The notes under the pieces are model-generated. The model ran no database searches, had not been told where the DNA came from, and worked only from the letters and a program-made list of their open reading frames with translations. Position numbers and translations under genes: made by a program. DNA of 64,000 nt. Origin: an uncultured Gammaproteobacteria bacterium. Its GTDB lineage: Bacteria; Patescibacteriota; Patescibacteriia; UBA11705; JABHMO01. Shown here one piece after another: positions 14,403-43,000 of this stretch (within the stretch, counting starts at the first letter, position 1; each line of letters opens with the position of its first letter). The stretch is taken from positions 26,697 to 90,696 of the forward strand of contig CAZPYM010000002.1 in assembly GCA_964590105.1 (NCBI GenBank), given 5' to 3'.

Positions 14403-14458
14403 GCGCTGTTAAGATAAAGAAGTTCTTTTCATTACATCAACCATAAACGGGGGAAATC

Positions 14459-15397: not shown

Positions 15398-15524
15398 AAA
15401 TCCAAAAAATATCTCGAGGGAAGTCACCATGTGGCTTCCCTCTTCAACCGCCGATTTCTTGGAAAAAGGAATCTGCAGTTGGAGATTTGTTCATTAAATT
15501 AAAAACAACCAAGAGGAGTCTGTC

Positions 15525-16759: not shown

Positions 16760-16779
16760 CAACCCAAAAGGAGGACAAA

Positions 16780-17562
16780 ATGGCAGACAAATCTGATCAA
16801 CTCAAAGCACTGCTCGAGGCAAAGCAGTATGCCCAAGCACTCACGCTGATCAAGAGCGCCGACGACTACAATGAAGGTGAGAGCTTTGTCTTCGCAGTTC
16901 TGCGGCACAAGAAAGCCAGCCAGGCGCTACTCAACACTGCACTCAAAACTTTCATCAGGACAAGACAGAACTGGTATCGCCAACATGGATACTGGGTTCA
17001 CAGCTTGTCTCATTTCACCGGAGATCTCTGGGAAATGGGCCAACTGGACTGGATCAAGAAGCTCAACAAAATCGCCTTTGACGGCGTGCTTGAACTCGGC
17101 GACGACAATTGTTCTGAACGACTCGTAGGAGATTTTTTCCGACACAGTACCTGGGACATGGATCCTCGGGATTTTCACATCACGACTGAACTGCTTGACC
17201 ATTTCAAGTATGGCCGAGCCTATGGCCAGGCGCGCCTGGCTGTTTCTCCATTCGAAAGCGAAGCTGCTTTCAATGAATGGGAAGCTCGTTGGCATCTGAG
17301 TGCCGAGGGCTATGAAAAGAGTTTCAACTACGAAGCCCAGGAATCCATGGTCCATACCCAGGGTCTGACCAAATGGATCAAAATTCTGGCTGATCTGGGC
17401 CGAGACGTATCAGAATTCGACGGACTGATCAAGCGCCTCCTCGAGGCACAATTGATCGAATTCAAGGAAAAGCTGGAAAACGCGGACAAGGACTGGGTGC
17501 GCGAACACGCCGAAAAGGCAATTACAATCACCAAGGCCCAGCTGGCCGAACTCGATTCCTAA
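16780..17562 (+). CDS. hypothetical protein
   Basis: RBS aaaggaggacaaaATG. 260 aa, Trp/acid-rich, no recognisable motif. Confidence 0.55.
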   Translation: MADKSDQLKALLEAKQYAQALTLIKSADDYNEGESFVFAVLRHKKASQALLNTALKTFIRTRQNWYRQHGYWVHSLSHFTGDLWEMGQLDWIKKLNKIAFDGVLELGDDNCSERLVGDFFRHSTWDMDPRDFHITTELLDHFKYGRAYGQARLAVSPFESEAAFNEWEARWHLSAEGYEKSFNYEAQESMVHTQGLTKWIKILADLGRDVSEFDGLIKRLLEAQLIEFKEKLENADKDWVREHAEKAITITKAQLAELDS

Positions 17563-17572
17563 AACAACCAAA

Positions 17573-17606
17573 AGAGCCAAGCACTCACCTGCCTGGCTCT
17601 TTTTTA
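17573..17606 (+). terminator. rho-independent terminator
   Basis: agagcca-agcactcacctgcc-tggctct-tttttatt. Confidence 0.65.
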
Positions 17607-17618
17607 TTATCTAAATTT

Positions 17619-19992: not shown

Positions 19993-20188
19993 CTGCCTCC
20001 TCCCGCTATTAACTTGAAATCAATTCTCGACAGCCTACGCCAAACCGATTTTTCAAGCTTAACTCACGATTATTAAGTTGTCAACGACGAAAACTGGTCA
20101 CGTTAAGAATAATGTCCGACAATAAAATTGGCACACGCTATTATCACAAAAAAATAAAAGCCCGCTTTAGAAGCGAGCTTTGGATTGT

Positions 20189-20776
20189 CTAAATCGCCTT
20201 CACAATATCAGCGATAGCGGCCATAGCGCCGACGCCCACGTCACCGCAGGCGAGTTTGCGCGATACCGGCGGAACCAGACGAAGGTCATACCAAATCTTC
20301 AATTTCGCCAAATGTTCGTCCGTGACCGGATGCTCCCACATCTTCGTGTTCATGGCCGGCGCGATTATCACCGGTTTACTTCTGTCCCAAGCGCGCAGAA
20401 CGCATGTAAGAAGATTGTCGCAAATACCGTTCGCGGCCTTGGACAAAGTGTTGGCCGAAAGCGGCGCGATCACTATCGCGTCCGCCCAGTCGCGAAGCGC
20501 GATGTGCGGAATTGACTGATTCTTGCGGTAACGCAGGCTCGGCCACTCGTCAAAATCAGTCCAAATCCTTGCGCCAGATATATGCGGCAGTTTGCCCCAG
20601 CCGAACTTGGTTCTGAGCAATTGCCCCAGGAAAAACCAAAATGGCTTTTTCTGAAAATATCCGGCGCTGAAAGTTGAAACGATCTGCACCTCATGGCCGG
20701 CTTTTTCCAGTTCGCAAACCAGCTTCTCCGCAAGAGTGGCCGCCACGCTTCCGGTAATACCCAGCAGTATTTTCAT
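20189..20776 (-). CDS. coaC: phosphopantothenoylcysteine decarboxylase-like flavoprotein (CoaC / HFCD family)
   Basis: Block-wise alignment to the E. coli Dfp N-domain: KILLGITGSVAA, HIALRDWADAIVIAPLSANTLSKAANGICDNLLT, PVIIAPAMNTKMW, LACGDVGVGAM. Confidence 0.8.
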   Translation of the reverse strand: MKILLGITGSVAATLAEKLVCELEKAGHEVQIVSTFSAGYFQKKPFWFFLGQLLRTKFGWGKLPHISGARIWTDFDEWPSLRYRKNQSIPHIALRDWADAIVIAPLSANTLSKAANGICDNLLTCVLRAWDRSKPVIIAPAMNTKMWEHPVTDEHLAKLKIWYDLRLVPPVSRKLACGDVGVGAMAAIADIVKAI

Positions 20777-21495
20777 TTCAGCCTCCCCGCCAATGCTTCC
20801 GGCAATTCATCGCGACTAACGCTTTTCGCTTTTCCTTTGCGATCAATAATGTACGCGCGCTCGCGCGCCCATTCGAGGCAATTTGCCACAATCAGGTCAG
20901 CATCGGAAACTGCGCGACTGCGCCTCGCGATTTCAATCAACTCCTCGTCGCTCTTGCCGACTTCCAGCTTGAACTTGACGAGATTGCCTTTGAATCCCCA
21001 CTCTTTCCGAATCCTATCCACGATCTTGAAGGTTGGAACCATGCGCAAAAAAAGTTCCTGATGTTTGGAAGAAATCTTGGCGCTCGAATCAGCTTCTGTC
21101 AGTCGTTCGTCCGCGCCGCGCTCGAAAACGCCCGCCACCTGATAATCGCTAACCGCGGCGGAGTGAATTACTACATCATAGCCGCCGGTGCGAATTTCTT
21201 CTTCCATGATATCTGCCAATTCAGCAAAAGTCTTGTACAACAGCGCGCGAGGATGCCGTATTGGATCCCATGATGCCCCGCCTCCGCTCCGATATCGGTA
21301 TCCAGCCATGTATCGATCTTCGAACTCTTTGACAAGAAGCGGATTCGAAGTAACAAGTACAACCTCATTTTGATGGCCATTCCACGACAAATCGAAAGCG
21401 ATCTCCGTTCCCGTGCGGCCGTGAAAAATGTTCGTGATCGCCCGCACCTTATCGATCATCACCTGCGTAGAACCGGCGGTTACGAGAATTTTCAT
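20773..21495 (-). CDS. coaB: phosphopantothenate--cysteine ligase (CoaB) domain protein
   Basis: KILVTAGSTQVMIDKVRAITNIFHGRTG matches the Dfp C-domain I(L/M)ITAGPTREPIDPVRYISNxSSGKMG, plus IHSAAVSDY and DLIVAN. ATGA overlap with coaC. Confidence 0.75.
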   Translation of the reverse strand: MKILVTAGSTQVMIDKVRAITNIFHGRTGTEIAFDLSWNGHQNEVVLVTSNPLLVKEFEDRYMAGYRYRSGGGASWDPIRHPRALLYKTFAELADIMEEEIRTGGYDVVIHSAAVSDYQVAGVFERGADERLTEADSSAKISSKHQELFLRMVPTFKIVDRIRKEWGFKGNLVKFKLEVGKSDEELIEIARRSRAVSDADLIVANCLEWARERAYIIDRKGKAKSVSRDELPEALAGRLK

Positions 21496-21551
21496 TTCAC
21501 ACCTCCCGTTAATGTGGCCGTAAGGGCACGATTGGTAGCGCCCCTACGAAA

Positions 21552-21779
21552 TTAATCTTCAATGCCATTATTCGCGAAAATCGCGCCGAGCCACCGATTT
21601 GGAAAATCATCGCGCGTCAAGCCGTTTTCCTTGCCACACACCGCGCAATGAACCCAGAACTCGTGCGCATGACCATGACCGATGTCGCTGATTTTCACCT
21701 CTTCGCATTCAACGGCGAGAATACTCTTGCATTTCACGCAGGTAAGTTTCACCGTATCGTTATTTTTCAATACTCGCAT
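21552..21779 (-). CDS. small zinc-ribbon-like protein (CxxC...H...CxxC)
   Basis: LTCVKCKSILAVECEEV...HCAVCGKENG. Overlaps the upstream gene end by about 20 nt. Confidence 0.45.
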   Translation of the reverse strand: MRVLKNNDTVKLTCVKCKSILAVECEEVKISDIGHGHAHEFWVHCAVCGKENGLTRDDFPNRWLGAIFANNGIED

Positions 21780-22692
21780 TGTTCACCTCAAGGCGAAAAA
21801 GTTTCGTTGCATTTTTCCAATAAATATTCGCTTTCCCATCATCGCCGATTCCCCACGGATCTCCGGCATCCATATTATCGTCACACGCCCAAGGACCGGG
21901 ATGAATTGTACCGCCAAGAGATTCTACCAGCGCAATCGTATCTGCATACGATTGAATTGGGAAATCAGTGGCGAACATGAGCCGGTCGACTCCATTTGGC
22001 ACCAATGTGATAAAATGTTCAATTTCGGCGCGCAACGCTTCCTTTTCCTCCGGCGCATATTCGATCGTACCGGAAATGTCGGTATAAACATTCGGGCATA
22101 TGCGCATGAGATCTCGGAGCTCGCTAAAATGCGGATTACCAAGGTGCGCCACCACGAACTTCACGCGCGGAAATCGTTGCGCCGCGCCAAAGAATTGACT
22201 TGGCCGCGACAGATATTCCAGCTTGTCGAGCGGGCAGTCGGCAAAGCCGCAGCGCCTCTCGCTTGCATCGCTACAGCAGTGATGCAAGTAGCCGGAGTGA
22301 AGGATTACCGGCAGATTAAATTCTTCCGCCAACTCGTAAACCGGAAACGCAGTCACGCCGCTCGGCTTAAAATCTTGATATCCGGGATAAAGCTTGATGC
22401 CGACAATCCGCTTTTCTTGCGCCAGTCGGCGCAAACGCATTACGCCAAGCTCGACATTGCCCATCATGTCTAAACTGCCGCAAGCAACGAACAGTTTCCT
22501 ATCACCAATTCGCGTCAACAGTTCTTCGTTGTGCAAACCAGATCCCTTGAAAGGAAAGTACGTGGCCATTAGTACAATCTTTGTTACTCCGTGCTCTTCC
22601 GCTAATCTTTCCAGGTCCGCAATCGTCGCTGTTTCCGTGTGCAAATTCCACAACTTGTGATTCGTCGTATGCGCGTGGATATCGATGATCAT
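21760..22692 (-). CDS. metal-dependent amidohydrolase (TIM-barrel, amidohydrolase_2-like)
   Basis: MIIDIHAHT N-terminal metal-binding motif, with HSGY and D-containing strands later. Confidence 0.65.
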   Translation of the reverse strand: MIIDIHAHTTNHKLWNLHTETATIADLERLAEEHGVTKIVLMATYFPFKGSGLHNEELLTRIGDRKLFVACGSLDMMGNVELGVMRLRRLAQEKRIVGIKLYPGYQDFKPSGVTAFPVYELAEEFNLPVILHSGYLHHCCSDASERRCGFADCPLDKLEYLSRPSQFFGAAQRFPRVKFVVAHLGNPHFSELRDLMRICPNVYTDISGTIEYAPEEKEALRAEIEHFITLVPNGVDRLMFATDFPIQSYADTIALVESLGGTIHPGPWACDDNMDAGDPWGIGDDGKANIYWKNATKLFRLEVNNASIEK

Positions 22693-28196: not shown

Positions 28197-31049
28197 TTAT
28201 TCCACAATCACATTGATCGCCTCGGCGCGATGATGTTCGCCCGCCGGATCAATAATTTCAATATACAATTCATAACCGCCCTTTTCATACGCCGCATTCC
28301 AAGATAAATTTATTTCGTTTGAATCGGGAAAAATCACTGTGGCCACGCTATTGATCTGGCCGGTTTCTGTTTTTCGGTACAAAACATTTACTTTTTCGCT
28401 GGCCAATAAATCAGTTAAATGAATCTTCAAGGGAGTCGGGAAGTTTTGCTGCTGAAGAACCGTTCCATTAGCCGGGAAAGTCCAGCTGGCTTGCGGCGCG
28501 GAAGCATCAGATATAATATTCAGTTCAATCTGAGCTTCGTTTATGTTGCCAACATCATCATGCGCCACGGCCCGTAACTTGTGAAACCCCTTAACAAAAT
28601 AACTGCTAATCGGGTAATGCAAATTGTATGGCGACAACGAATTTGTTTGTAATAATTTATTATCCAAATAATAGTCCACGCGGGTGATTCCTCTGGCGGC
28701 AGACGCATTGACGCTGGCATCGAGGAATGATTCAGAAATAGTAGCGTTATTATTTGGACTGGTAATAAATATTGTCGGCTTATTGGCTTCCGTATGCAGA
28801 TCATCAAATTCGCTTGGCGGCTGGTTCGTCGTAAACTCTTTGCCGGCCTCTTCAGTCGCTGATTTCAACCATGACTGCACTGCCTCTTCCCAAAATTGGT
28901 ACTGATAATCAGCTTTTACCGGATCATCAGGCGCGCCGCCGCGCGGATCATCTTTGTAAACATACTGTAAAATGCAATGCGCGTCCATGAACTCTTTTTC
29001 TTCAATTGCTTCCGGCGGAGTCAGATCGGTTGCCAACTTGCCGCTATATTTATCAATTTTAATAATTTTTACCGGTGAAATTTCACCATCCAAAACAGGC
29101 TTACCGGTTTTTTCAATTTCAACTGCCGGGAAATTTTCCACTGCTGTTCCTTCCAGCGCTTTTTTCATATACTCATTCCAGATAGGCACCGCCACTACGC
29201 CGCCGGCTGCGCCTTTTTTCATTGCCGAATTATCATTGTTGCCAACCCAGACGCCTGTGGCAAGAGATGGAGTATATCCCATTGTCCAGGCATCACGGTA
29301 ATCATTGGTTGTGCCTGTTTTGGCGGCTACCGGCCGGCCGGGCAAGGTCAAATTACTGCCGGCACCAAAAACATAGGCGCGCGCGCTGTCGTCAGACAAA
29401 ATATTAGTAGTCAAATTGGCAATCTTCGCGTCAATGGCTTTTCTTTTTCTTTCTTCGAATTTAATAAGGACATTGCCCTTGCTGTCTTCAACTCGCAAAA
29501 TGGCTACCGGCGGATGATACACACCTTCATTAGCCAGAGTGGCAAAAGCGGCTGTGTGTTCCAGCAACCTGACTTCGCCTCCGCCAAGGACAAGGGATAA
29601 ACCAAAACGACTACGGTCTTCAAATGACGTATAACCGAATAATTCCAGGAGATCAATTACTTTTTGCACGCCCACCAAATAAATAGTTTTGACCGCCGGA
29701 ATATTCAGCGATCCGGCCAAGGCTTTCCTCATCGTCACCGGCCCATGTTCAACTAAATCATAATTTAGCGGATGATAATCTTTTATTTCTGTTTTGAAAG
29801 TTGTTTCCACATCATAGAGAACGGTATCGGGCGTATAGCCTTTTTGAAAAACGGCTGTATAAACCAAAGGCTTAATTGATGATCCAGGCTGGCGCAGACT
29901 CAAAGCCACATTAACATTTCCGTCATGCTCAATATCAAAATAATCCTTTGAACCAACCATGGCCAAAATCTGTCCAGTTCGTGGATCTAATGACACCAAA
30001 GAGGCATTATAAAAATTATATTGCGCGCCTTTATTTTCAACGCCATTTGTAACTGCCTGTTCGGCAATTTCTTGCTTTCCCAGATCCAGCGTAGTCACCA
30101 CTTTGAGGCCGCCGCTCTCAACCAGTTCGTCGCCGAGTTTTTCACTGAGAAGCTCTTTGACATACATTACAAAATGCGGCGCAGTGATTGATTGTTTTTT
30201 TAGAGCAAATTCAATTTTCTCCGCGGCCGCCGCTTTGGACTGCTCCTCGGTAATGTAACCATTGTCAACCATTTGGCCCAAAACATACTGTTGGCGCCCA
30301 AGTAATTCATCCTTATGGCTTCCAAACGGCGAATAATAGGTCGGCGCTTTTGGCAGGGCGGCAAGAACTGCCGCTTGCCCCAAGGTTAAATCTTCAACGT
30401 CCTGATTAAAATAAGTCTGGCTAGCGGACTGAACGCCGTACGAAACAGACCCGTACGGGATTTCGTTCAAATACATCTGCAAAATATCATCCTTAGAAAA
30501 AGCTTTTTCAATTTTATAAGACAGAATAAATTCTTTTATTTTCCTGGAAATTTTCCTTTCATTAGTTAAAATAGCGTTCTTAACAAATTGCTGAGTCAAA
30601 GTTGAACCACCGCGAGCTCTCTTGCCCATCAGGGGATCAACAATCGCCCCCTTGATCATCGCCAATATATTAAATCCGCTGTGTTCGTAAAAATGTTTGT
30701 CTTCCGCTGAAATAGTCGCCCATTTCACATAATCAGGAATATCCGATAGCTTGACCAAAGTTCTTTTTTGCTCGCCATGCACATCATAGAGAACTGTTTT
30801 TTCATCCCGATCATAAATCTTGGTGCTTTGCGCCAAATTTCTCTCTAAAATTTTATTCGGATCAGGCAATGACCGCGAATACCAGGCAAAGGCGCCAATC
30901 AGGTAAATTACAAACAAGAAAAAGCAAACCACTCCAAGCTTAAAAAGTTGGAAGAACCATCGTTTAAATTTTTTCTTCATCTGCCGACCAAATCTTTTTC
31001 TCTGATATTCTGGCCGATGACGGATGACTCGAAGTTGGGGGATAGGCAT
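28197..31049 (-). CDS. penicillin-binding protein 1A (transglycosylase + transpeptidase) with ~300-aa C-terminal extension
   Basis: GT51 motifs (EDKHFYEHSGF, RGGSTLTQQ), TP motifs (SSIKP, SLN, KTGT), an N-terminal TM helix, and a long C-terminal beta-rich tail. The start is ambiguous between 31049 and the MKKKFKRW ATG at about 30979. Confidence 0.85.
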   Translation of the reverse strand: MPIPQLRVIRHRPEYQRKRFGRQMKKKFKRWFFQLFKLGVVCFFLFVIYLIGAFAWYSRSLPDPNKILERNLAQSTKIYDRDEKTVLYDVHGEQKRTLVKLSDIPDYVKWATISAEDKHFYEHSGFNILAMIKGAIVDPLMGKRARGGSTLTQQFVKNAILTNERKISRKIKEFILSYKIEKAFSKDDILQMYLNEIPYGSVSYGVQSASQTYFNQDVEDLTLGQAAVLAALPKAPTYYSPFGSHKDELLGRQQYVLGQMVDNGYITEEQSKAAAAEKIEFALKKQSITAPHFVMYVKELLSEKLGDELVESGGLKVVTTLDLGKQEIAEQAVTNGVENKGAQYNFYNASLVSLDPRTGQILAMVGSKDYFDIEHDGNVNVALSLRQPGSSIKPLVYTAVFQKGYTPDTVLYDVETTFKTEIKDYHPLNYDLVEHGPVTMRKALAGSLNIPAVKTIYLVGVQKVIDLLELFGYTSFEDRSRFGLSLVLGGGEVRLLEHTAAFATLANEGVYHPPVAILRVEDSKGNVLIKFEERKRKAIDAKIANLTTNILSDDSARAYVFGAGSNLTLPGRPVAAKTGTTNDYRDAWTMGYTPSLATGVWVGNNDNSAMKKGAAGGVVAVPIWNEYMKKALEGTAVENFPAVEIEKTGKPVLDGEISPVKIIKIDKYSGKLATDLTPPEAIEEKEFMDAHCILQYVYKDDPRGGAPDDPVKADYQYQFWEEAVQSWLKSATEEAGKEFTTNQPPSEFDDLHTEANKPTIFITSPNNNATISESFLDASVNASAARGITRVDYYLDNKLLQTNSLSPYNLHYPISSYFVKGFHKLRAVAHDDVGNINEAQIELNIISDASAPQASWTFPANGTVLQQQNFPTPLKIHLTDLLASEKVNVLYRKTETGQINSVATVIFPDSNEINLSWNAAYEKGGYELYIEIIDPAGEHHRAEAINVIVE

Positions 31050-31221: not shown

Positions 31222-32151
31222 TTAAAACAGCATATCCAAAAATTTCTCAATCGGCTCGCGCTTTTTTCCATGAGTCGGGAAATGATGAAGCTGGACGCCC
31301 GGATCGCTATTTAATTCTATTATATATCTTTTTTTGTTAATGTCTTCAGCCAAATAATCAATACCAATCACATCTGTTTTTAAAAGCTTGGCAATGGTGA
31401 TTGCTTGTTTTTTTACTTCCGAAGATAATTCGTCCGTGCAGTCTCTTGACTCGCCGCCGGTATGAATATTGGCCGTCCCCCGCAATATAATTTTTTGATT
31501 TTCTTTCGGAACGTAATATAAACTTAATTTTTGCCCGGACAAAAACGCTTTCATGGGCTGATCAATGATAATCGGCTTTTTCCTCTGCTCCGGCGTTTCC
31601 TGCAAATTTTTTATGCTAATCAATTTTTTTATCGAATCCCTTCCATTACCGATTACATAAGCCGGAAATCTCTGAACCGCAAAAACGTTCTTATAATTTA
31701 TTACCAAAACCCTATGATCAACCCCCGGATAATATTTCTCAATGACCTTGCTGTGTTTTGTAAATTGATTTGCATAACGCCAGGCCTGCTTTAATTGCCG
31801 TACTGTTTCAATGCCCACCGAGATTCCTTTGCCTTGTTTCAATTTCATTGGCTTCACAACAACCTTTTTGTGTTTTTCAAGAAACTTTTTCGCTTCGCCG
31901 AATTCTTTTGTTTTGATCTGCGGCAGAACTGGAAATTTATTAATTTTCAAAAACTCTCTGGCCACAACCTTTGAACGAGCCAGCTCATATCCGCTGGCCG
32001 AAGAATTGTCACTGACAATTCCGCCGTATACTAAGTGTATTTGTTTCCCTTTGGATAAAACGCAAAAAGAATCATCAGATTCTAAAGTTTGACATTTAAT
32101 GCCTCTTTGTTTCGCGCGCCGGCATAAAAAAATTGTATGTTCGTTTTTCAT
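31222..32151 (-). CDS. ATP-grasp ligase, cyanophycin-synthetase-N-domain-like
   Basis: VVVKPMKLKQGKGI, AYVIGNG, NIHTGGESRDCTD, DVIGIDYL, and C-terminal QLHHFPTHGKKREPIEKFLDMLF, resembling the MHHxPxxGxPRxVAxAIxDxLF end of the CphA ATP-grasp domain. Confidence 0.65.
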   Translation of the reverse strand: MKNEHTIFLCRRAKQRGIKCQTLESDDSFCVLSKGKQIHLVYGGIVSDNSSASGYELARSKVVAREFLKINKFPVLPQIKTKEFGEAKKFLEKHKKVVVKPMKLKQGKGISVGIETVRQLKQAWRYANQFTKHSKVIEKYYPGVDHRVLVINYKNVFAVQRFPAYVIGNGRDSIKKLISIKNLQETPEQRKKPIIIDQPMKAFLSGQKLSLYYVPKENQKIILRGTANIHTGGESRDCTDELSSEVKKQAITIAKLLKTDVIGIDYLAEDINKKRYIIELNSDPGVQLHHFPTHGKKREPIEKFLDMLF

Positions 32152-32418
32152 GGGTTGTGACTTTCTGGCAATTGACTAGAAATCTACAATTTGTACTATT
32201 TCTCTTACAATACCATGCCCGCAGCAATGATTCAATATCCCCAGCAATGCTTGGAACCTTTGATTAAACCGTCTAGCACAAATAAAATCGGACGCTAACA
32301 ATTATGTTGGCATCCGATGAGTGTTAAAAACAAAGGACAAAAAAGCTAGAAGATCTAGGCATCCAAGCGCCCTGAACCACTCACTCCTTCGTCGCTCGGG
32401 TTCAGGGCAAGCAAAGCG

Positions 32419-32889
32419 CTACACACTTGCGAGGACTGCCGACGGACGATCGTCACCACAGTTACGGCCAAGCCAGTAGTAGTACCAGTCCCACCGCGAG
32501 CCACGCAAGCACAGGAATAGCACAAAGCGAAGACCACGAGGCGACCACAGGACAGTTCCTTCAAAACAAACATACTTTCCTTTCCAATGCTCGGGAATCA
32601 GATACGGATTATCCCACAGCGCTTTGAATACAGCCGCGTCCAGCCGAACATGACCAACCGCCTTGAGCCGCTTCAGCTTTTTCTCTCCCTGAATCGACCC
32701 GCCATCTTCCGGCCGGAGCATGTTCTCCAAGCGAATTTCGCTCAAGTCAATTTCTACGAGCGCGAGCGAACGCCCGTCCTGCTCGTCAATCTTCCAGCCT
32801 TTTTCACCGATGAAAACCGATGGATCAAACGGCTGGCTGCGGTCAATCACGAGCTTTGAACTCTGAAGTATCATCACCCGACCCCGCAA
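32419..32889 (-). CDS. hypothetical protein in a GC-rich insert
   Basis: ...GKYVCFEGTVLWSPRGLRFVLFLCLRGSRWDWYYYWLGRN. No family recognised. Local GC is far above neighbours. The true start may be the internal ATG at 32874. Confidence 0.4.
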   Translation of the reverse strand: MRGRVMILQSSKLVIDRSQPFDPSVFIGEKGWKIDEQDGRSLALVEIDLSEIRLENMLRPEDGGSIQGEKKLKRLKAVGHVRLDAAVFKALWDNPYLIPEHWKGKYVCFEGTVLWSPRGLRFVLFLCLRGSRWDWYYYWLGRNCGDDRPSAVLASV

Positions 32890-32938
32890 TTCTTCAAGAA
32901 TCGCCTAAACTCGGCGCCGACTTGAACAGGCTTCTCAA

Positions 32939-33038
32939 TCATCTCTTGCCGTCCAGCTCATCCCAATTAACCTTGCTGGCCAGAATGGCCATCAGATTAT
33001 GCTTATGGTACTGACCGACACTAACCGGCCTACTCATG
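32939..33038 (-). CDS. small ORF (32 aa) upstream of the previous gene
   Basis: gcggaggtgcgtcATG has a good SD. Translation is MSRPVSVGQYHKHNLMAILASKVNWDELDGKR. Coordinates are approximate to within 1 nt. Confidence 0.3.
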
Positions 33039-33277
33039 ACGCACCTCCGCGTTTACGCTGATCATGTTCCTCCCGCACTGCGCGGGACTCCATGACTAAC
33101 GCGATAGAAAAGATCAAGTTTCTTATTTACTTTAAGGTGTTATTATAATGCGCTATTTAAAAAATGTCAATGGCGGCTTGGCGTTTCGTTGCTAATATTA
33201 CCGTTTTTCATCGGTTACGAATTACGAATTGGCTACTAATATTCGTAGGAATGCGTAGATTCATAGCAGATTGGTAA

Positions 33278-34294
33278 TTAGTAGCCTTTTGTTTCAGGAA
33301 AAAGCTGGTCAATGATCGCGCCGGCCGCGTTTCTCGGTTCGCCGACATACGGAATGTGGTGCATCGAAATCATGGGAGAATCATTAACCTCAATAATAAT
33401 ATAATTTCGACTGGTTGGCTCGGCAGTAATATCTTTGGTTAAATAATCAATGCCCGCGAAAGCCAAACCGGGAATTGCCTGAATTATTTTAACTGCCAAT
33501 TTTTTTATCTTTGGATTAACAATATCAGTCGCGTCATAACTGTCGCCGCCAGTGGAGATATTTGAATTCACGCGTAAATAAACCAAATGGTCTTTTTCCA
33601 GAACGGTGGAAAGTTTTAATTTTTGTTTTTCCAAAAGCTCCCTAACTATATTATCAACTTTAATTTTTACCAGGCTTTTTTCATGTCCCCGGCCACGCCG
33701 CGGATCTTTGTTTTTCAGCTCAATCAATTGCTTGATCGAACGAATACCGTCGCCAACCACATTTGCCGGCACGCGATGAATGGCTGCCACATATCTTTCC
33801 CGGGTGGCGAAAATGCGATATTCCTCGCCGATAAATTCCTTTTCCACAATAACTGTTTTAAATAAGCCGGTTTTGAATTCTTTCAAAGCCCTTCGAACTT
33901 TGGCCTCTGAATCAAGTCCGACAAATACTTTTTTTCCCTGAATGCCACTCAGTGGCTTGATCACAACCGGATATTTTATTTTTCTGCAAAAATCTAAAAT
34001 TTCTTTTATTTTTCGATAATCAAAAACCCGGCTTCTGGCCACTTGAATTCCGGCCCGGCGGAAAAAATATTTTGCCAGTTCTTTGTTCCTCTGAATCCAA
34101 AAAGCAATGCAATCTGTTTCTGACGTTCTTTGCCCGACGATTACCTCCCTCCGTCCCTTGTATTGCAATTCTAAAAAACTTTTCTGGGACAAGATCCCGG
34201 ACTTAAATATCCGAACGACTTTTATACCTCTCTTTTCCGCTTCCGCTCCAATTAAGTAAGTACTAAAATAATTAAAATCTTTTTTGTTTAACAT
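33278..34294 (-). CDS. ATP-grasp ligase, cyanophycin-synthetase-N-domain-like (paralog of 31222..32151)
   Basis: YPVVIKPLSGIQGKKV, ANVVGDGIRSIKQLIELKNKDPRRGRGHEKSL, NISTGGDSYDATD, GIDYLTKDI, IEVNDSPMISMHHIPYVGEPRNAAGAIIDQLFP. This is the characteristic CphA ATP-grasp signature. Confidence 0.7.
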   Translation of the reverse strand: MLNKKDFNYFSTYLIGAEAEKRGIKVVRIFKSGILSQKSFLELQYKGRREVIVGQRTSETDCIAFWIQRNKELAKYFFRRAGIQVARSRVFDYRKIKEILDFCRKIKYPVVIKPLSGIQGKKVFVGLDSEAKVRRALKEFKTGLFKTVIVEKEFIGEEYRIFATRERYVAAIHRVPANVVGDGIRSIKQLIELKNKDPRRGRGHEKSLVKIKVDNIVRELLEKQKLKLSTVLEKDHLVYLRVNSNISTGGDSYDATDIVNPKIKKLAVKIIQAIPGLAFAGIDYLTKDITAEPTSRNYIIIEVNDSPMISMHHIPYVGEPRNAAGAIIDQLFPETKGY

Positions 34295-34355
34295 AGGAAT
34301 ATAGTAACAAACTGTTAAATTGCTAAATTGTTAAACTGTTTAAACAAAACGGGGT

Positions 34356-35213
34356 TTAGCAATTCTCCAGATATTTAACAATCTCTTCCGCAACATTGAT
34401 GCCGACAACCCGCGTGAATCGCTTAAACTTTGGTGAGCGATTGACTTCAAGCAACTTTTGCTGGTCGCCATCCCGAATAATGTCAACGCCAGCAATGTCA
34501 GTATTGGTGGCCTTGGCCGCTTTTAAAGCCAGTGCTTTCAATTCTTCGGTTAGAATAGCGGGCGTTGAACGCTTTTCCAAAGGAACCTTTTTTCTTTCCG
34601 AATTATAGTAGCTCATTCTTTGCATTACTCCCAGTATTTTATCGCCAACAACTAAAACGCGGAAGTAAAAATCAGCATTTACCTTTTTCTGAATTAAAAA
34701 TCGCTCAACCCTATTCTTTCTCTTGATAAAAAACTGTTCCAACCCTTTTTTTGTTTTAAATGAATAAATATTTCGGCTGTGCATGCCGTTTATGTCCTTA
34801 ATCAGAACCGGCCGCGGAATCTTTGTTAAATATCGGCTAAACTCTTCAAAAGTTGAAAAGTGAAAGGTGTCAACACAGGGAAGGTTTTCCTGAAAAAATT
34901 CAAACGACATGAACATTTTGTCAAATTCATAAGCCTTGTTGTACAGTTCGCGGTCAATCACTTCCGTGCCGGAGAACTTGAAGTAGCGAGCCAATGTTTT
35001 TGCCTTGGCAAAATACGGAGCAATGCCACGGAACAAGCAAACATCAAAATTTTCCAATTTTTCACCGCGCCAAAAGGCCTGCATTTTGTTATCCTTAACA
35101 ATCAATGAAATTTTATGCAAGGAAGTGCGCAGAACTTCATGGCCGCGCCTTTTCGCCTCGATCATTATTTGGTTATTTTCAATAGAGCGCGGTCCGATTA
35201 TCAATAGCTTCAT
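34356..35213 (-). CDS. RimK-like ATP-grasp ligase
   Basis: About 285 aa, with a C-terminal block DIAGVDIIRDGDQQKLLEVNRSPKFKRFTRVVGINVAEEIVKYLENC typical of RimK/GshB-type ATP-grasp. Confidence 0.65.
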   Translation of the reverse strand: MKLLIIGPRSIENNQIMIEAKRRGHEVLRTSLHKISLIVKDNKMQAFWRGEKLENFDVCLFRGIAPYFAKAKTLARYFKFSGTEVIDRELYNKAYEFDKMFMSFEFFQENLPCVDTFHFSTFEEFSRYLTKIPRPVLIKDINGMHSRNIYSFKTKKGLEQFFIKRKNRVERFLIQKKVNADFYFRVLVVGDKILGVMQRMSYYNSERKKVPLEKRSTPAILTEELKALALKAAKATNTDIAGVDIIRDGDQQKLLEVNRSPKFKRFTRVVGINVAEEIVKYLENC

Positions 35214-35449
35214 AAATGGGTTCGGGAAATTAAGTAAATTAGTGAATTGGCGAATTAGCGAATTAAGAGATTAAGAGAATTAAGGGATTAAGAGAATATA
35301 GAATCTCTCGCTTTACTATACTTTATTTAAATTTGATCTATAATTCGCGTCATTCGTGTGTTCCTTAGTCATTCGTGTTAATAACTAATTCACTTTCCTG
35401 TGTCAACCCGAACGAGGAGGAACGACGAGTCGAGGGTCGTGTTACCCCT

Positions 35450-36847
35450 TTACTTGGTAGGATCGATTAAAAATTTTTTCAAGTCCCGCCGGCCGACTAA
35501 AACCGGATATTTTAAATTTTCGCGCATAATCACCGAAGCATTGCTATTTATTTCCACTCCTTCAAGTTCGATCTTCAAAGGAATCTCCATTCGATAAGAA
35601 ACTCCATGACTGCTGAATGTTTTCGCAATAGCCACAATGTCAGGATGTTTTTCCAGTTCAAGCCAAACCTTTTTCCGGCTTAGCTCTGCCACTTCTTCCG
35701 CTGTCATGACGCGTTTGATATTAAATTTTTCATAATATTCAATGGCCTCACCAAAACCCAATTGTCTGGCCAGGTTTTCATCAATCGCCGTAATGCCGGC
35801 CCCAGTGTCCAACTTGGCTTCAATCGCCACCCATTGACCGTCTTTATCTTTAATTTTTATCGGGTTAATAATGCCCAGCACTCGCTTGCCGGTCATTTCC
35901 TCAACCTCGCTTTCAATTTCACCGCCAAAAAGTTCCTTGGCTACCGCAATTCCCTTTTTCACTGTTTTTATTTTCAATCCTTTTACCCGCAAAAGCCGAT
36001 CCTTGATCGGAGCTAAATTAGCAATCTGAATTGACAGTCCGGGATGCGCATTTAATTCCAAAATTACCGGCCCTTTTTCTCTGTCCATAGCAATGTCTAC
36101 GCCAACATAATTTAGACCACAGGCAACAGCAGCTTTGACAGCCAGTGTTAATATATTTTCCCAGTTTGGAATTTTGATCCCGCGCAAAGGCAATTTCATA
36201 TCAGGCAAATTCTCAATCAAACGATCATGATGAATCGCATAAGTGGTCACTCCGGTAGAAATATCAAGCCCAACGCAAATTCCGCCCTGATGCAAATTGG
36301 CTTTTCCTCTTGATTCCTTGGTAGGCAATCGAAGCATAGCCATCACAGGAACCTTATTGTAAACAATAACTCGAATATCCGGAATTCCTTTGTAACTATA
36401 TAGTTTAAATACGGGGTGAATTTTCAGTCTTTCTTCGAAAAAAGCCGCATCCGGCGCATTTGTTTTGGAATAATCACCGTCCAGAATATTGGAAACTCGA
36501 AGCATGATATCTTGCACACTCGCTTCGCGGTCAAGCGGTAATACCCACTTGCCATTTTTTTTCCGACCAAAAGTAACCATAATGCCCTCGCCGCCAAGTC
36601 CTTGATTTGGCTTTAAAACAAAACTTTTCGGCAGGGAGGCCCAGTCGAAATTATAAAATTCCTTGCGATTACGAATAGCCGCAATGATTCTTGACACCGG
36701 TAATTCATGCTTCACCAGAAGTCTTTTGGTGCGTAATTTTTCGTCAACCAATTTGATCTTCTTCTTGGAAGCGCCGGGCCGGACAAAAGTCAAATTCCTG
36801 GCATTCATGCCGAGAACCTGCTTACTTTTTTTCAGCCAACTCAACAT
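35450..36847 (-). CDS. RimK-like ATP-grasp fused to a retropepsin-like aspartic protease domain
   Basis: The N-terminal ATP-grasp carries LELNAHPGLSIQIANLAP. The C-terminal ~140 aa contain WVAIEAKLDTGAGITAIDENLARQLGF (D-T/S-G-A aspartic protease motif), the domain widely annotated as an ATP-dependent zinc protease partner of RimK. Confidence 0.7.
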   Translation of the reverse strand: MLSWLKKSKQVLGMNARNLTFVRPGASKKKIKLVDEKLRTKRLLVKHELPVSRIIAAIRNRKEFYNFDWASLPKSFVLKPNQGLGGEGIMVTFGRKKNGKWVLPLDREASVQDIMLRVSNILDGDYSKTNAPDAAFFEERLKIHPVFKLYSYKGIPDIRVIVYNKVPVMAMLRLPTKESRGKANLHQGGICVGLDISTGVTTYAIHHDRLIENLPDMKLPLRGIKIPNWENILTLAVKAAVACGLNYVGVDIAMDREKGPVILELNAHPGLSIQIANLAPIKDRLLRVKGLKIKTVKKGIAVAKELFGGEIESEVEEMTGKRVLGIINPIKIKDKDGQWVAIEAKLDTGAGITAIDENLARQLGFGEAIEYYEKFNIKRVMTAEEVAELSRKKVWLELEKHPDIVAIAKTFSSHGVSYRMEIPLKIELEGVEINSNASVIMRENLKYPVLVGRRDLKKFLIDPTK

Positions 36848-38462
36848 TTTTTATAACCTTTCGAAAACGATAATATTCAGTTAAACGCAAACCGGTCCAC
36901 TTACCAATCAATAAATTAATAATAACAGTTAATAGTATATATTCCGGATAACCCAGGATCAGCGTGCGCAATGTTTGCCAGCTCGCCACCCAATAACAGA
37001 GCACTGACAAGAAAAGAGTTTCCAAAATCAACATGACCGCGCTCTTGTTTCCTCTTTCAATTTGCACGGAAATAAATTTTTCAGTCAAAAGCACGATAAC
37101 CAAAATCGGAAAAATCGACATTTCCAGCAAACCGTTTTTCCCAAATCTGGCGCCGAGCAAAAAAATCACAAAAATCGAAAAACTTACCAAGCTAAGAACA
37201 ATGGCCATCCTCGGTAAATATGACAATTGAATTTTTCTAGCCAACAGACGCCCGAGTGTTCCGACTAGCAGAGTTATCAAGAACAACGCCAGTCCGTATT
37301 TCAATCCGGTAACCAAAAAAGTAACTGCCACGATCGATGGCGTGTAAATTCCAAGCGCCTTGACACCGATAATCTGCCGAGAAAAAGCCATGATGGTGGC
37401 GATAACCGGCAAAATTAAAATTAGATAAATAGTATTAATCGGCACGCCATTATCAACCATGTAGCCCACACAATAAGACAAAAAATTCCAAGGCTTCAAT
37501 GTACTGGCATCTCTTTGCGTATGCAGACCGACCAAACGATAATCCACTTGACTGGCGCGCAATTTGTTTAGCAAAGATTCAAAATCAGAACTGCTAAAAA
37601 CATCATTGGCCGCCGCCGGTTTAGTCAGGACAATGAATTGCGGATTTAGAAGATTATATAAGCTTTGCGCCAATTTGGCCGTGGCGGAAAAATTTTGTTC
37701 GGTAACTACTACAAAAAATTTATTTTGGAAACCAAAACTATTCAAATCACCGCCATTTTCGCTCGAACTCCTGGTTAAATTTTGCGCCGCTTCAAGAAAA
37801 GCATTCAAACCAAAATTTTTATCCGTCCAAATAATTACAGCGCCGGCTTGACGAATATTTTCCTTGCTTTTTAAAACCTGCTGAGCCAGTTCCTTCTCAA
37901 TAACATAGTCTACCTCTCCCTGTTGATTGATGTTAACGACCAATATCCCTTGAGAGCTAGCAATATTATTTACACCGCGAAATTTTTCATCGTCAACAGC
38001 TTTATCAGAAATCAACACGACCACGTCTTTGTCAACGCTTACCATCACTTCATCGCCGCTTTCGTATTTCAAACTATTGGAGTAGCCCACGATCCGCAGG
38101 CTGGCGCGATAGACTCCGGATGAATAATAAACATGAGCAACCTCCTTGCCGCTGGCCACATCGCCGTCGCCAAAATCCCAAAAATATTCCGGATTATCCA
38201 CGCCGGAGACAACAGAACCCAAGGCTGAAAAAACCACCTGGTTTTTGGCCACTATATTTTTGTCTTCTCCCGCAACAGCCTTGATAACCGGCAGCTGAAT
38301 AACCGGCTCTTCCTGAGCGAAAATAGCCCCTTTTGGTAAAAAAACAAAAAAGCATAAAAGCAAAAAAACAAAAAAACCAAAAAGCGCACTTTTTCTGAGC
38401 CTGAATTGCCCTCTATAAAAAAAACTTGATCCTAATTTTTCCCATATATTATTTCTAGTCAT
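36822..38462 (-). CDS. membrane protein: N-terminal PKD-like domain plus C-terminal multi-pass (about 7 TM) domain
   Basis: Signal/TM, then EYFWDFGDGDVASGKEVAHVYYSSGVYRASL (the PKD WDFGDG motif), a long extracytoplasmic region, then at least 7 hydrophobic helices. Overlaps the ATP-grasp/protease gene by 26 nt. Confidence 0.7.
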   Translation of the reverse strand: MTRNNIWEKLGSSFFYRGQFRLRKSALFGFFVFLLLCFFVFLPKGAIFAQEEPVIQLPVIKAVAGEDKNIVAKNQVVFSALGSVVSGVDNPEYFWDFGDGDVASGKEVAHVYYSSGVYRASLRIVGYSNSLKYESGDEVMVSVDKDVVVLISDKAVDDEKFRGVNNIASSQGILVVNINQQGEVDYVIEKELAQQVLKSKENIRQAGAVIIWTDKNFGLNAFLEAAQNLTRSSSENGGDLNSFGFQNKFFVVVTEQNFSATAKLAQSLYNLLNPQFIVLTKPAAANDVFSSSDFESLLNKLRASQVDYRLVGLHTQRDASTLKPWNFLSYCVGYMVDNGVPINTIYLILILPVIATIMAFSRQIIGVKALGIYTPSIVAVTFLVTGLKYGLALFLITLLVGTLGRLLARKIQLSYLPRMAIVLSLVSFSIFVIFLLGARFGKNGLLEMSIFPILVIVLLTEKFISVQIERGNKSAVMLILETLFLSVLCYWVASWQTLRTLILGYPEYILLTVIINLLIGKWTGLRLTEYYRFRKVIKNVELAEKK

Positions 38463-38612
38463 ATTTATACTCTTGCTGCTGGCAAATTATAATTTATTAT
38501 TTTTGAATTTTAATTTTTCCTTTCAGCAAGCAACGTCTCCTTGTTTTATTGTTTCGTTGCTCCGTTGTTTTGTTATTCCAATGTTTCGTTGCCTTTTTGT
38601 TTTCTTGTTTTC

Positions 38613-41613: not shown

Positions 41614-42015
41614 CTAATTACCCGTTGTGGCGTCAAGCAATGAAGTGATCACAAAGTTAGTAATAGCGTAAGCCGCCAAAATTATAGCGAGGCCAATCAC
41701 CGCGTTGGTCAGCCACTGCTTAGCCTTGGTGACATCCTCAGGATTGCCTCCTGCCGTCATCCACAGGAATCCGGCGTATATTACGATAACAATCACAACC
41801 ACGCCAAGAAAAGTTAAAACAACTTTTATTATATTTCCGACCATCTCAGGCAATGGCGTCGGATCTTCCGTGTCATATGCGGTTCCACCTACACTATTTA
41901 AGTTATTCGTTAACTCCGTTTTGAAATCAGTTGCTGCCACCGGCTGGGCCGTCAGTGATATCATAAAACTACTGACAAGCACGAGCATTAAACAAAGCGC
42001 AATAATATTTTTCAT
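41614..42015 (-). CDS. T4SS-pilin-like (TrbC/VirB2-like) small secreted protein, paralog 1
   Basis: Signal peptide, a variable mature N-terminus, then the conserved core VIVIVIYAGFLWMTAGGNPEDVTKAKQWLTNAVIGLAIILAAYAITNFV. Confidence 0.7.
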   Translation of the reverse strand: MKNIIALCLMLVLVSSFMISLTAQPVAATDFKTELTNNLNSVGGTAYDTEDPTPLPEMVGNIIKVVLTFLGVVVIVIVIYAGFLWMTAGGNPEDVTKAKQWLTNAVIGLAIILAAYAITNFVITSLLDATTGN

Positions 42016-42035
42016 AAATTTTTCCGAATTACTTG

Positions 42036-42491
42036 TTATATAAATATTGAATTAATGAGCGCGCTAACGCCGGTAGCAACAGTTAATTTGTCCACTACAA
42101 AATAAGTAATCGCATAGGCGGCAAGAGCAATACCCAGCCCGATCACAGCCTGCGACAGCATGTCTTTTGCTTTGGTGACTCTTTCAGGATTACCACCAGC
42201 CGTCATCCACATTATACCGCTATAAATAACTAAAACAAGTAAAATAATTCCAAGTAAAACTAAAATCACTTTGATCGCCGCGCCAACTATAGTGGGTAAA
42301 TCCTTGTTCGGAACACCGCCGGCCGCTGACGCTCCCATGCCTTCGCCGGCTTTGCCAAGAGTGGAGGTGATTGAATCTGTACTGGCAGGAGCAGGCGGCG
42401 CAGCCTGTACGACAGCAATCCCGCAAAATATAAATACCATTGAGGCCAAAACTCCGATGCTAATCAATTTTTTAAAATTTGTTACAGTCAT
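42036..42491 (-). CDS. T4SS-pilin-like protein, paralog 2
   Basis: Core LVLVIYSGIMWMTAGGNPERVTKAKDMLSQAVIGLGIALAAYAITYFV. Confidence 0.7.
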   Translation of the reverse strand: MTVTNFKKLISIGVLASMVFIFCGIAVVQAAPPAPASTDSITSTLGKAGEGMGASAAGGVPNKDLPTIVGAAIKVILVLLGIILLVLVIYSGIMWMTAGGNPERVTKAKDMLSQAVIGLGIALAAYAITYFVVDKLTVATGVSALINSIFI

Positions 42492-42535
42492 ATTATTTTT
42501 AATTTATTAATTTCCAGCAAAATTCATTCCCCTTT

Positions 42536-42592
42536 ATAATTTGTTATTTGTCCGCCATAGGCGGATGCGCTTTGGGCGCATAATTTGTAATT
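42536..42592 (+). repeat. twin-hairpin repeat, copy 3 (partial), between pilin paralogs 2 and 3
   Basis: ataatttgttatttgtccgccataggcggatgcgctttgggcgcataatttgtaatttcc. Confidence 0.8.
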
Positions 42593-42595
42593 TCC

Positions 42596-43000
42596 TTATT
42601 CCACCCCGACCGCGCTGGTCATTGCCTTAACCACGTAATATGTAATCGCATATGCCGCCATGGTCACCGTCAAGCCGATCGCGCCATCTATGATCATGCC
42701 CCTGCCTTTGGTCACTCCCTCAGGAGCGCCCGCGGCCGTCATCCAAGTTACGCCACCGTAAACAACGATTATCAAAAATATGATCCCGGCCACGCTGACC
42801 AAAACCCCGATCGCTTTACCAATCACGCCCGCCGGATCAACTTTGTCGGTTTTTAATCCCGCCGGCCCAGCTGAGGTTTCAAGCCCTTTGAGCGCCTTGG
42901 CAGTTGCTTTTTCATTGGCCATGACCCCGTCCGCAACTAATACAAAATTAATCGTAAAAAACGAGATGAATAACAAACAAATTAATAATTTTTTAAACAT
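42596..43000 (-). CDS. T4SS-pilin-like protein, paralog 3
   Basis: Core IIVVYGGVTWMTAAGAPEGVTKGRGMIIDGAIGLTVTMAAYAITYYV. Confidence 0.7.
   Translation of the reverse strand: MFKKLLICLLFISFFTINFVLVADGVMANEKATAKALKGLETSAGPAGLKTDKVDPAGVIGKAIGVLVSVAGIIFLIIVVYGGVTWMTAAGAPEGVTKGRGMIIDGAIGLTVTMAAYAITYYVVKAMTSAVGVE

Follow-up and report, generated by a model that had tools for sequence, protein, structure and literature searches.

The window analyzed here is a 64,000-nucleotide (nt) stretch of contig CAZPYM010000002.1 (NCBI GenBank assembly GCA_964590105.1, positions 26,697 to 90,696), deposited as an uncultured Gammaproteobacteria bacterium and placed in Patescibacteriota by GTDB. Between positions 31222 and 38462 of the window, the minus strand carries five open reading frames (ORFs), designated g1 to g5, together with a sixth ORF, ORFx (Table 1). 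The locus takes up ~7 kb, or ~1%, of the ~594-kb contig. g1 encodes a membrane protein related to RloB of Pseudomonas aeruginosa, g2 encodes an RloC-like ATP-grasp ligase fused to a retropepsin-like protease, and g3, g4, and g5 encode three accessory ATP-grasp ligases. An earlier note on this DNA had described five co-directional genes, and all five ORFs were located on the minus strand. Its further claim that they form a single block held in part: the common strand and a synteny conserved in relatives agree with it, but the genes are not contiguous, as an island of ~1.06 kb separates g4 from g5. The nearest named relatives belong to Candidatus Kuenenbacteria (80% identity) and Falkowbacteria, confirming the background of the candidate phyla radiation type that had been suspected.

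The ligase part of g2 was assigned to the ATPgrasp_ST family (PF14397) with 225 bits (E 1e-66; gathering score, 31.4 bits). In an AlphaFold2 model of g2 (predicted local distance difference test [pLDDT] score, 86), the ATP-grasp domain is followed by a beta-rich domain, and the best Foldseek matches in the PDB were RimK structures (4iwx and 5zk6, E 1e-10). Neither the sequence nor the model contains a hydrophobic N-terminus, a signal peptide, or a transmembrane (TM) segment, and the protein is therefore predicted to be cytoplasmic. Gene callers chose Met14 as the start, yielding a 452-amino-acid (aa) form (P0001); since residues 1 to 13 are conserved in homologues, the longer start, which overlaps g1, appears to be the real one. 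The overlap of 26 nt agrees with the reading that the membrane-protein gene runs into the ligase/protease gene.

We then analyzed the C-terminal domain of g2. Foldseek with the whole model did not recover a retropepsin fold, the top 50 matches all being ATP-grasp enzymes. For this reason, a profile of the domain alone, built from the g2 family, was run against PDB sequences; it matched the RloA crystal structures 9G58 (E 4.5e-4) and 9G59 (E 9e-3) as well as Legionella 2PMA. The NCBIfam model RloA3 also matched the domain (E 2e-5), and in one g2 homologue (L061) the domain passed the Pfam gathering score with 36.5 bits. Among 46 homologues, over which all residue conservation in g2 was computed, D347, G349, and A350 were invariant and T348 was nearly so, in agreement with the retropepsin-type DTGA domain noticed earlier. 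R419 and R442, 23 residues apart, were likewise invariant, and K345 was either Lys or Arg. The profile alignment superposes the segment AK(L/I)DTGA and R419 and R442 on the corresponding segment and Arg residues of RloA, with K345 on K46; through the chain numbering, R419 and R442 can be equated with R114 and R137 of RloA. In Pseudomonas, RloA mutated at R114 or at R137 no longer cleaves poly-Glu and no longer complements (Lormand et al., mBio 2025, PMC12239564). As judged from these alignments, the three Arg/Lys residues that coordinate poly-glutamate in RloA appear to be conserved, or conservatively swapped between Lys and Arg, in the g2 protease.

The two domains of g2 are joined by an acidic linker in which F307 and G309 are invariant and E310, E312, E314, and E316 are at least 90% conserved; pLDDT falls below 50 at residues 312 to 319. 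The linker may be a site of self-cleavage (autoprocessing) or a pseudo-substrate or auto-inhibitory site. We also note that this Glu-rich segment directly precedes a protease domain predicted to bind acidic chains.

The PKD domain and the seven TM helices (7TM) that the earlier note had attributed to g1 were both confirmed by Pfam (PKD_4, 52.9 bits; 7TM_transglut PF14402, 99.5 bits against a gathering score of 25), each above its cut-off, and the WDFGDG motif is present. The protein begins with a TM anchor (aa 24 to 40), and its AlphaFold2 model has a pLDDT of 82. The NCBIfam RloB model matched with 88 bits (E 4.7e-25) over model positions 307 to 507 only, i.e., the C-terminal 200 positions, and the inactive transglutaminase ectodomain was not found in g1. 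The topology predicted by the positive-inside rule has both the basic loops and the C-terminus on the cytoplasmic side. The motif G(K/R)WxGLRxxEYxRF(R/K)x(V/I) near the C-terminus recurs, with minor substitutions, in essentially all 7TM partners listed from related loci, whether of the bare (~218 aa) or the long (~520 aa) form. Conservation of the 7TM protein is highest at its cytoplasmic face. We considered the 7TM C-terminus as an acceptor for glutamylation and rejected it, because the tails are basic rather than acidic, with K/R-rich ends.

All four ligases retain the ATP-grasp Lys, the Gly-rich loop, and the D...E-x-N metal-binding motifs, as read from their sequences, and profile matches placed them in the types proposed previously. 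g3 belongs to the RimK family (gathering score of PF08443, 21 bits). Against TIGR00768 it scored 116 bits, below the cut-off of 143, with an alignment covering positions 8 to 275 of 276; another member of the same accessory family, F3, in a related locus (L044) scored 160 bits, above the cut-off. The closest PDB entry was Pseudomonas RimK (7qyr, 64 bits). g4 and g5 align only to positions ~160 to 475 of the cyanophycin synthetase model TIGR02068 (cut-off, 850 bits), the ATP-grasp G domain. The N domain and the Mur-like M domain of cyanophycin synthetase were not found in either protein, nor is there a Mur-like gene in the block, and the view that both lack the Mur-ligase half was thus borne out. 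The motifs NISTGGDSYDATD, GIDYL, and MHHIPYVGEPRNAAGAIIDQLFP occur in g4. Among known proteins, g4 matched CphA1 (7lgm, 172 bits) and GshAB (3ln7, 157 bits) in the PDB, and g5 matched NAGGN synthetase (166 bits), GshAB (160 bits), and, in the PDB, CphA1 (7wac, 123 bits). g4 and g5 had been called paralogs of the CphA type. They do fall in one clade with a TIGR02068 G domain, but are only 29% identical and are thus distant members of that clade rather than recent paralogs.

To compare the block with related loci, GTDB species representatives were scanned, which gave 376 confirmed relatives, and the best 80 loci were kept; ORF-level neighborhood counts are based on 81 loci. A word-indexed search with the g2 fusion family returned 5869 matches, the best 120 of which were all of the Patescibacteria type. 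The 80 loci come mainly from Moranbacteria and Paceibacteria, with some from Falkowbacteria and Kuenenbacteria. Their common gene order is YebC, RuvC, the 7TM gene, the ligase-retropepsin fusion gene, one to four (rarely zero) ATP-grasp ligase genes, and usually the class A penicillin-binding protein gene PBP1A. The 7TM gene lies directly upstream of the fusion gene in 73 of the 81 loci, at a median distance of 7 nt, and is preceded by RuvC in 64. One to four accessory ligase genes directly follow the fusion gene in 71 loci (median gap to the first ligase, 9.5 nt; between ligases, 3 nt), a conserved synteny of the kind that the earlier note had proposed to look for, and PBP1A lies further downstream on the same strand in 52, at a median distance of 138 nt from the last ligase. 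These distances and the overlap in the window show translational coupling between the 7TM gene and the gene for the ligase-protease, and the PKD/7TM gene is thus not an independent unit; likewise, the ligases did not fall into unrelated families devoid of synteny.

The accessory ligases vary in number (one in 27 loci, two in 32, three in 10, and four in 2) and fall into ~7 recurrent families arranged in ~37 different orders or combinations. The window's combination, RimK-like followed by two CphA-G-like ligases, was seen again in Falkowbacteria. The set of four ligases in the window is therefore not a fixed system but one of ~37 combinations. Nor does a surface or host interaction mediated by the PKD domain fit as the core function: the PKD and alpha/beta ectodomain occurs only in ABY1-type lineages (Kuenen-, Falkow-, and Kerfeldbacteria), and the 7TM partner of most lineages is a bare protein of ~218 aa. 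Three loci reached independently through homologues of g4 were all of the same type as the g2-derived set. Two of them (L088 and L091) keep the core and the ligases without PBP1A at its usual position, so that it is the core, and not PBP1A, that the accessory ligases go with.

In the relatives, ligases are also joined to further peptidases. Homologues of the MATCAP-family (formerly DUF1704) carboxypeptidases were present in 12 of the 81 loci and in L088 and L091. In L061:10001-12835 and L071:3891-6761, a single ORF of ~950 aa combines ATPgrasp_ST, retropepsin, and MATCAP-like domains, each above its Pfam gathering score, whereas in L088:5604-7037 and L091:4539-5972 the MATCAP-family homologue adjoins the ligase-retropepsin gene. 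In addition, P0305 (L090:8001-9488) joins a CphA-G-like ligase to a second retropepsin, and fusions of RimK to DUF3541 were also present among the relatives. The two retropepsin fusions of L090 stand in tandem (L090:6547-9488), the RloC-retropepsin gene first and the CphA-G-like-retropepsin gene second; the linker of P0305 is poly-Lys (SRKKKKP) at the place of the acidic linker in the g2 family. Three relatives carry proteins consisting only of Mur-ligase M and C domains in the variable slot (L027:13220-14434, L080:11480-12742, and L052:3083-4360). These scored higher with the cyanophycin synthetase M domain (107 bits) than with MurE (74 bits) and, together with nearby G-domain-like ligases, suggest a split set of cyanophycin-synthetase-like enzymes in some Patescibacteria. 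The variable slot also holds glycosyltransferases and YdjC, and some accessory ligases of relatives gave weak Pfam matches to the TTL family.

The nearest characterized system is the rlo operon of P. aeruginosa, in which rloA encodes a secreted retropepsin and rloC a cytoplasmic ATP-grasp protein (PMC12239564). RloA cleaves runs of at least eight Glu residues. A strain lacking rloA1-3 has osmotic, antibiotic, biofilm, and shape defects, which are suppressed once rloB or rloC is deleted as well (PMC12239564). The implication is that the protease has to clear a product of the joint action of the ligase and the 7TM protein. The NCBIfam models RloB ("osmotic stress tolerance membrane protein") and RloA3 ("retropepsin-like aspartic peptidase"), which derive from the work of Lormand et al., match g1 and g2, which correspond to rloB and to rloC/rloA, respectively. 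Both systems combine, in one operon, a 7TM_transglut membrane protein, an ATPgrasp_ST/TIGR02291-type ligase, and a RimB/RloA-type retropepsin, and DTGA and the poly-Glu-coordinating Lys/Arg residues are kept in g2. They differ in that the g2 protease is a C-terminal fusion to the ligase and cytoplasmic, whereas RloA is secreted; in that g1 has a PKD and an alpha/beta domain instead of the inactive transglutaminase ectodomain, most relatives having no ectodomain; and in that one to four additional ATP-grasp ligases follow the core gene. The hosts differ as well: ours are Patescibacteria, whereas 96% of RloB matches are from Proteobacteria (PMC12239564).

Other known enzymes resemble parts of the locus. 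In RimK and RimB, which poly-glutamylate ribosomal protein S6 and trim it, an ATP-grasp alpha-L-glutamate ligase likewise works with a retropepsin-like protease, both in the cytoplasm. g3 is a member of the RimK family, and the g2 ligase domain found its best structural match in RimK. The g2 ligase, however, lies in the ATPgrasp_ST clade, with ~20% identity to RimK in structural alignments, is one protein with its protease, and has an obligatory 7TM partner, which the Rim system lacks. The G domain of the cyanophycin synthetases CphA1 and CphA2, the nearest in sequence to g4 and g5, adds Asp to the C-terminus of the backbone, while the N domain holds the polymer and the Mur-like M domain adds the Arg branch. 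g4 and g5 lack the N and M domains, and M-domain-like separate genes were seen only in L027, L080, and L052. The C-terminal domain of GshAB (GshF) and NAGGN synthetase are in the same ATP-grasp clade as g4 and g5 and share the C-terminal H-x-P-x-G-x-x-R motif; the two known enzymes join an amino acid to a carboxylate, that of a small peptide or of an acyl-amino acid. g4 and g5, however, stand alone, with no GshA or GNAT partner domain, and in another genomic context. By analogy only, the eukaryotic TTL/TTLL and MATCAP/CCP enzymes of tubulin tails also join ATP-grasp ligases with a MATCAP-family carboxypeptidase, as some relatives do; the window has no MATCAP-like gene, and the TTL-family matches are faint.

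A peptide-modification system of ATP-grasp, 7TM/inactive-transglutaminase, and peptidase proteins was reportedly predicted by Iyer, Abhiman, Burroughs, and Aravind in Mol Biosyst in 2009, in an account that is not known to include multi-ligase arrays, fusions, or transglutaminase-less 7TM partners. The earlier note had regarded the trio as a computational prediction only, a view that is outdated since the genetic and structural characterization of rloABC in 2025 (PMC12239564). This kind of system is thus already known and is not categorically new. The fused cytoplasmic protease, the transglutaminase-less partner, the combinatorial ligase arrays, and the MATCAP-like editing enzymes are new, in that we did not find them described: a literature search returned no paper on the Patescibacteria ATP-grasp/7TM locus and none linking bacterial MATCAP/DUF1704 genes to ATP-grasp ligases.

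We interpret the block as a Patescibacteria version of the Rlo-type module (7TM protein, RloC-type ligase, and retropepsin) extended by three accessory ligases, in which an acidic peptide would be made without a template and then trimmed at the membrane; in our estimation, the chances that this interpretation is correct are about even. RimK, LysX, MptN, the CphA G domain, GshB, and NAGGN synthetase all convert a carboxylate to an acyl-phosphate and then add an amino acid. Since all the ligase clades represented here add an amino acid to a carboxylate, we propose the stepwise, template-free synthesis of an alpha-linked peptide chain. By analogy with these enzymes, each ATP-grasp enzyme of the block would activate a terminal carboxylate as an acyl-phosphate and join one amino acid to it, and jointly they would build or extend, in the cytoplasm at the membrane, an alpha-linked and probably Glu/Asp-rich chain. 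The chain is probably acidic, given that the poly-Glu-binding residues are retained in the fused protease. The retropepsin would trim the chain or limit its length, and the accessory ligases would set its composition, depending on the lineage. Through its conserved basic cytoplasmic face, the 7TM protein may bind the ligase or the acidic product and then pass the product to the envelope or else hold the acceptor; the export or anchoring of the product foreseen in the earlier note would fall to it. By contrast, the branched, Asp-Arg-like product also envisaged there finds no support in the window, because branching is carried out by the Mur-like M domain, which is absent from the block. The repeated fusion of ligases to an endopeptidase and a carboxypeptidase in relatives, as in the Rosetta-stone type of evidence, argues most strongly for a role of the locus in making and editing a peptide chain.

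Several observations count against this interpretation. No member of the family, Pseudomonas Rlo included, has a known product, substrate, or acceptor. The protease of g2 is predicted to be cytoplasmic, whereas RloA is periplasmic, and for this reason the Pseudomonas logic of clearing an exported product may not transfer. g2 scored 275 bits against TIGR02291 ("alpha-L-glutamate ligase-like"), below the equivalog cut-off of 314, and is accordingly best regarded as a family member of the RloC-type ligases rather than called an equivalog; its protease domain reached 21.9 bits (E 1.7e-4) with Pfam Zn_protease, below the gathering score of 27. The amino-acid specificity of the ligases is not readable from sequence, and the GshAB/NAGGN relatives add Gly or Gln, which are not acidic. 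Finally, the insertion between g4 and g5 and the gap of 236 nt between g2 and g3 make co-expression of the four ligases less certain than in relatives.

An alternative with clearly lower probability, although the best of the rivals, is that the ligases extend the C-terminus of a specific cytoplasmic protein, from which the retropepsin and, in relatives, the MATCAP-like enzyme remove the residues again to give a reversible tail code, the 7TM protein acting as a regulator or sensor rather than as a conduit. Such tail editing has precedents in RimK acting on ribosomal protein S6 and in TTL/TTLL acting on tubulin. In its favor, the ligase-fused protease is cytoplasmic like the RimK-RimB pair, g3 is itself of the RimK family, MATCAP-like carboxypeptidases occur within the locus or fused to the core gene in relatives, and the weak TTL-family matches of some accessory ligases point the same way, as does the in vitro cleavage of poly-glutamylated RpsF by both RimB and RloA (PMC12239564). 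However, no candidate acceptor was identified, the basic C-termini of the 7TM proteins being unlikely to serve, and the essentially invariant, translationally coupled 7TM partner is left unexplained; moreover, the Pseudomonas protease acts outside the cytoplasm, and a MATCAP-like gene is missing from the window. The accessory ligases might instead act on peptidoglycan precursors and furnish the stem peptide with side-chain or cross-bridge residues, as the ATP-grasp D-aspartate ligase of Enterococcus does, to yield a lineage-specific wall used by PBP1A. We regard this as improbable. It would account for the same-strand PBP1A downstream, which in a few of the 52 loci begins 1 to 35 nt from the last ligase, and for the Mur-type ligases in the variable slot of three relatives, and the variable ligase set may be likened to the cross-bridge diversity of Gram-positive bacteria. 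The rlo operon mutants have cell-shape and beta-lactam phenotypes, on which basis the authors speculate about peptidoglycan homeostasis, and the rlo genes of Vibrio are induced by the VxrAB wall-damage regulon (PMC12239564). The adjacency to RuvC and YebC, however, is equally conserved and surely not functional, so that the PBP1A adjacency may also reflect inherited gene order. Furthermore, PBP1A is set apart by its median gap of 138 nt, against 3 to 10 nt within the ligase array, and its adjacency is lost in L088 and L091, which keep the core and the ligases; the Mur-like proteins are nearer to the cyanophycin synthetase M domain than to MurE, and a poly-Glu-binding retropepsin would have no role.

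Slightly less probable still is that the genes are only loose neighbors, with g1 and g2 as a self-contained Rlo-like unit and g3 to g5 making small peptides such as NAGGN- or glutathione-like osmolytes and thiols, or maturing a graspetide-type ribosomally synthesized and post-translationally modified peptide (RiPP). g4 and g5 do match the ATP-grasp halves of GshAB and NAGGN synthetase, NCBIfam calls RloB an osmotic stress tolerance protein, and the gaps in the window exceed those of relatives (236 nt between g2 and g3; 1126 nt, with a foreign promoter inside, between g4 and g5). Relatives, however, pack the accessory ligases against the core gene, often with overlaps, even where the neighborhood changes, and the ligase-protease fusions tie both ligase clades to one peptidase type. 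The locus has no GshA or GNAT partner gene. As for a RiPP, the g2-g3 gap contains no minus-strand ORF of at least 20 aa, and no precursor-peptide candidate emerged from the gaps checked, the small ORFs of the g4-g5 gap being listed without a test of their conservation; graspetide maturase models, run on family representatives from related loci, were marginal, at ~27 to 28 bits or less against cut-offs of 350 to 425. The graspetide variant was rejected on these grounds. Anti-phage defense was also rejected, as the PADLOC defense-system models had no match to any of the six proteins (g1 to g5 and ORFx).

Taken further, the proposed synthesis of an acidic peptide by an Rlo-type module could be part of a modular, template-independent assembly line, in which interchangeable ATP-grasp ligases write a defined hetero-oligopeptide that the retropepsin and a MATCAP-like carboxypeptidase edit, with the product delivered to the surface through a new family of 7TM translocases or serving as a reversible C-terminal tail code. 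This extension is doubtful. If it held, the tail code would be a bacterial counterpart, and possibly the evolutionary source, of the eukaryotic TTL/TTLL-MATCAP tubulin code, and the system would have been retained in ultra-small genomes for a central role at the envelope or the host interface. In Pseudomonas, Rlo has effects on biofilm formation, cell shape, and the tolerance of osmotic stress and beta-lactams. The Patescibacteria form offers comparative leads, namely the ligase-fused protease, joined in some lineages by a MATCAP-like carboxypeptidase, the dispensable transglutaminase ectodomain, the highly conserved cytoplasmic face of the 7TM protein, and ligase clades in many combinations, and these features point to a peptide chain that is made and edited in the cytoplasm. 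Since the locus is found in hundreds of Patescibacteria species representatives, it probably matters to these reduced, largely uncultivated bacteria, and such a compact, widespread locus, with its small soluble enzymes, could make the product of Rlo-type ligases experimentally tractable.

Table 1. Coordinates of the genes, domains, and other features at the locus (window positions)
Feature	Position	Strand	Remarks
g1, RloB-like membrane protein, 546 aa	36822..38462	-	TM anchor, PKD, alpha/beta domain, seven TM helices
PKD domain of g1, aa 58-144	38031..38291	-	predicted extracellular
Alpha/beta (flavodoxin- or receiver-like) ectodomain of g1, aa 146-311	37530..38027	-	at the site of RloB's inactive transglutaminase domain
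7TM domain of g1, aa 342-546	36825..37439	-	predicted out-to-in; basic cytoplasmic loops; cytoplasmic tail
Conserved cytoplasmic C-terminal motif of g1, GKWTGLRLTEYYRFRKV	36855..36905	-	shared with 7TM partners
g2, RloC-like ATP-grasp ligase + retropepsin fusion, 465 aa	35450..36847	-	predicted cytoplasmic
ATP-grasp domain of g2, aa 7-291	35975..36829	-	PF14397, TIGR02291, Foldseek
Acidic inter-domain linker of g2, LFGGEIESEVEEMTG, aa 306-320	35888..35932	-	conserved, disordered
Retropepsin-like (RimB/RloA-type) domain of g2, aa 321-465	35453..35887	-	DTGA at 35798-35809
g3, RimK-family ATP-grasp ligase, 285 aa, accessory family F3	34356..35213	-	RimK PF08443, 78 bits
g4, stand-alone cyanophycin-synthetase-G-domain-like ligase, 338 aa, family F1	33278..34294	-	TIGR02068, 301 bits
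g5, stand-alone cyanophycin-synthetase-G-domain-like ligase, 309 aa, family F1	31222..32151	-	TIGR02068, 223 bits
Inserted GC-rich island, ~1.06 kb	32164..33201		outside the ligase system; GC 52-54% vs ~39% in flanks
Consensus promoter in island	33142-33170	-	TTGACA-17-TATAAT, 12/12 positions
ORFx, 156 aa, unrelated to ligases	32419-32889	-	large uncharacterised family
Promoter-like site in the 150-nt RuvC-g1 intergenic region	38486..38513	-	TTAAAA-16-TATAAT, 10/12 positions; consensus match only
PBP1A, class A penicillin-binding protein	28197..31049	-	context gene; usual downstream neighbor of the locus

The island between g4 and g5 is flanked by imperfect direct repeats of 22 nt, each containing ATGAAAAACG, the first ten bases of g5; the repeats look like a target-site duplication left by a small mobile unit. 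A perfect 10-bp hairpin lies at its 3' end (32369-32408). The counterparts of g4 and g5 in Falkowbacteria overlap each other and are not split by an island. As the island brings its own promoter, a perfect match to the sigma-70 consensus, g5 may be transcribed apart from g1 to g4. The family of ORFx comprises 1386 cluster representatives, typically of 150 to 220 aa, and no match to ORFx was found in Pfam, NCBIfam, PHROG, or PADLOC. A homologue with 70% identity lies just downstream of g2 in a Kuenenbacteria contig. In that contig, a 121-aa ORF (L008:11473-11838) directly follows g2 and precedes the ORFx homologue, at the position filled by g3 in the window, so that the variable slot also appears to gather small unrelated genes; by eye, its product resembles the four-helix-bundle "23S rRNA intervening sequence" proteins.

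Over 31 to 39 kb, which covers the block and the island, Rfam models gave no structured RNA and no riboswitch at E ≤ 0.1. GC content is raised at 14001-18000 and 20001-22000 of the window (0.475 to 0.50 against ~0.41 window-wide); these stretches are not rRNA, the sole Rfam match in the window being a tRNA at 57210-57296. Upstream of the locus, just past PGI, YebC, and RuvC, the window contains an array of ~8 small paralogous membrane proteins of ~130 aa with matches to T4SS_pilin (PF18895), at 41614-43000 and further upstream. The extent of this array is visible in L001:1258-5195, and it is also kept in Falkowbacteria (L004:81-3488).

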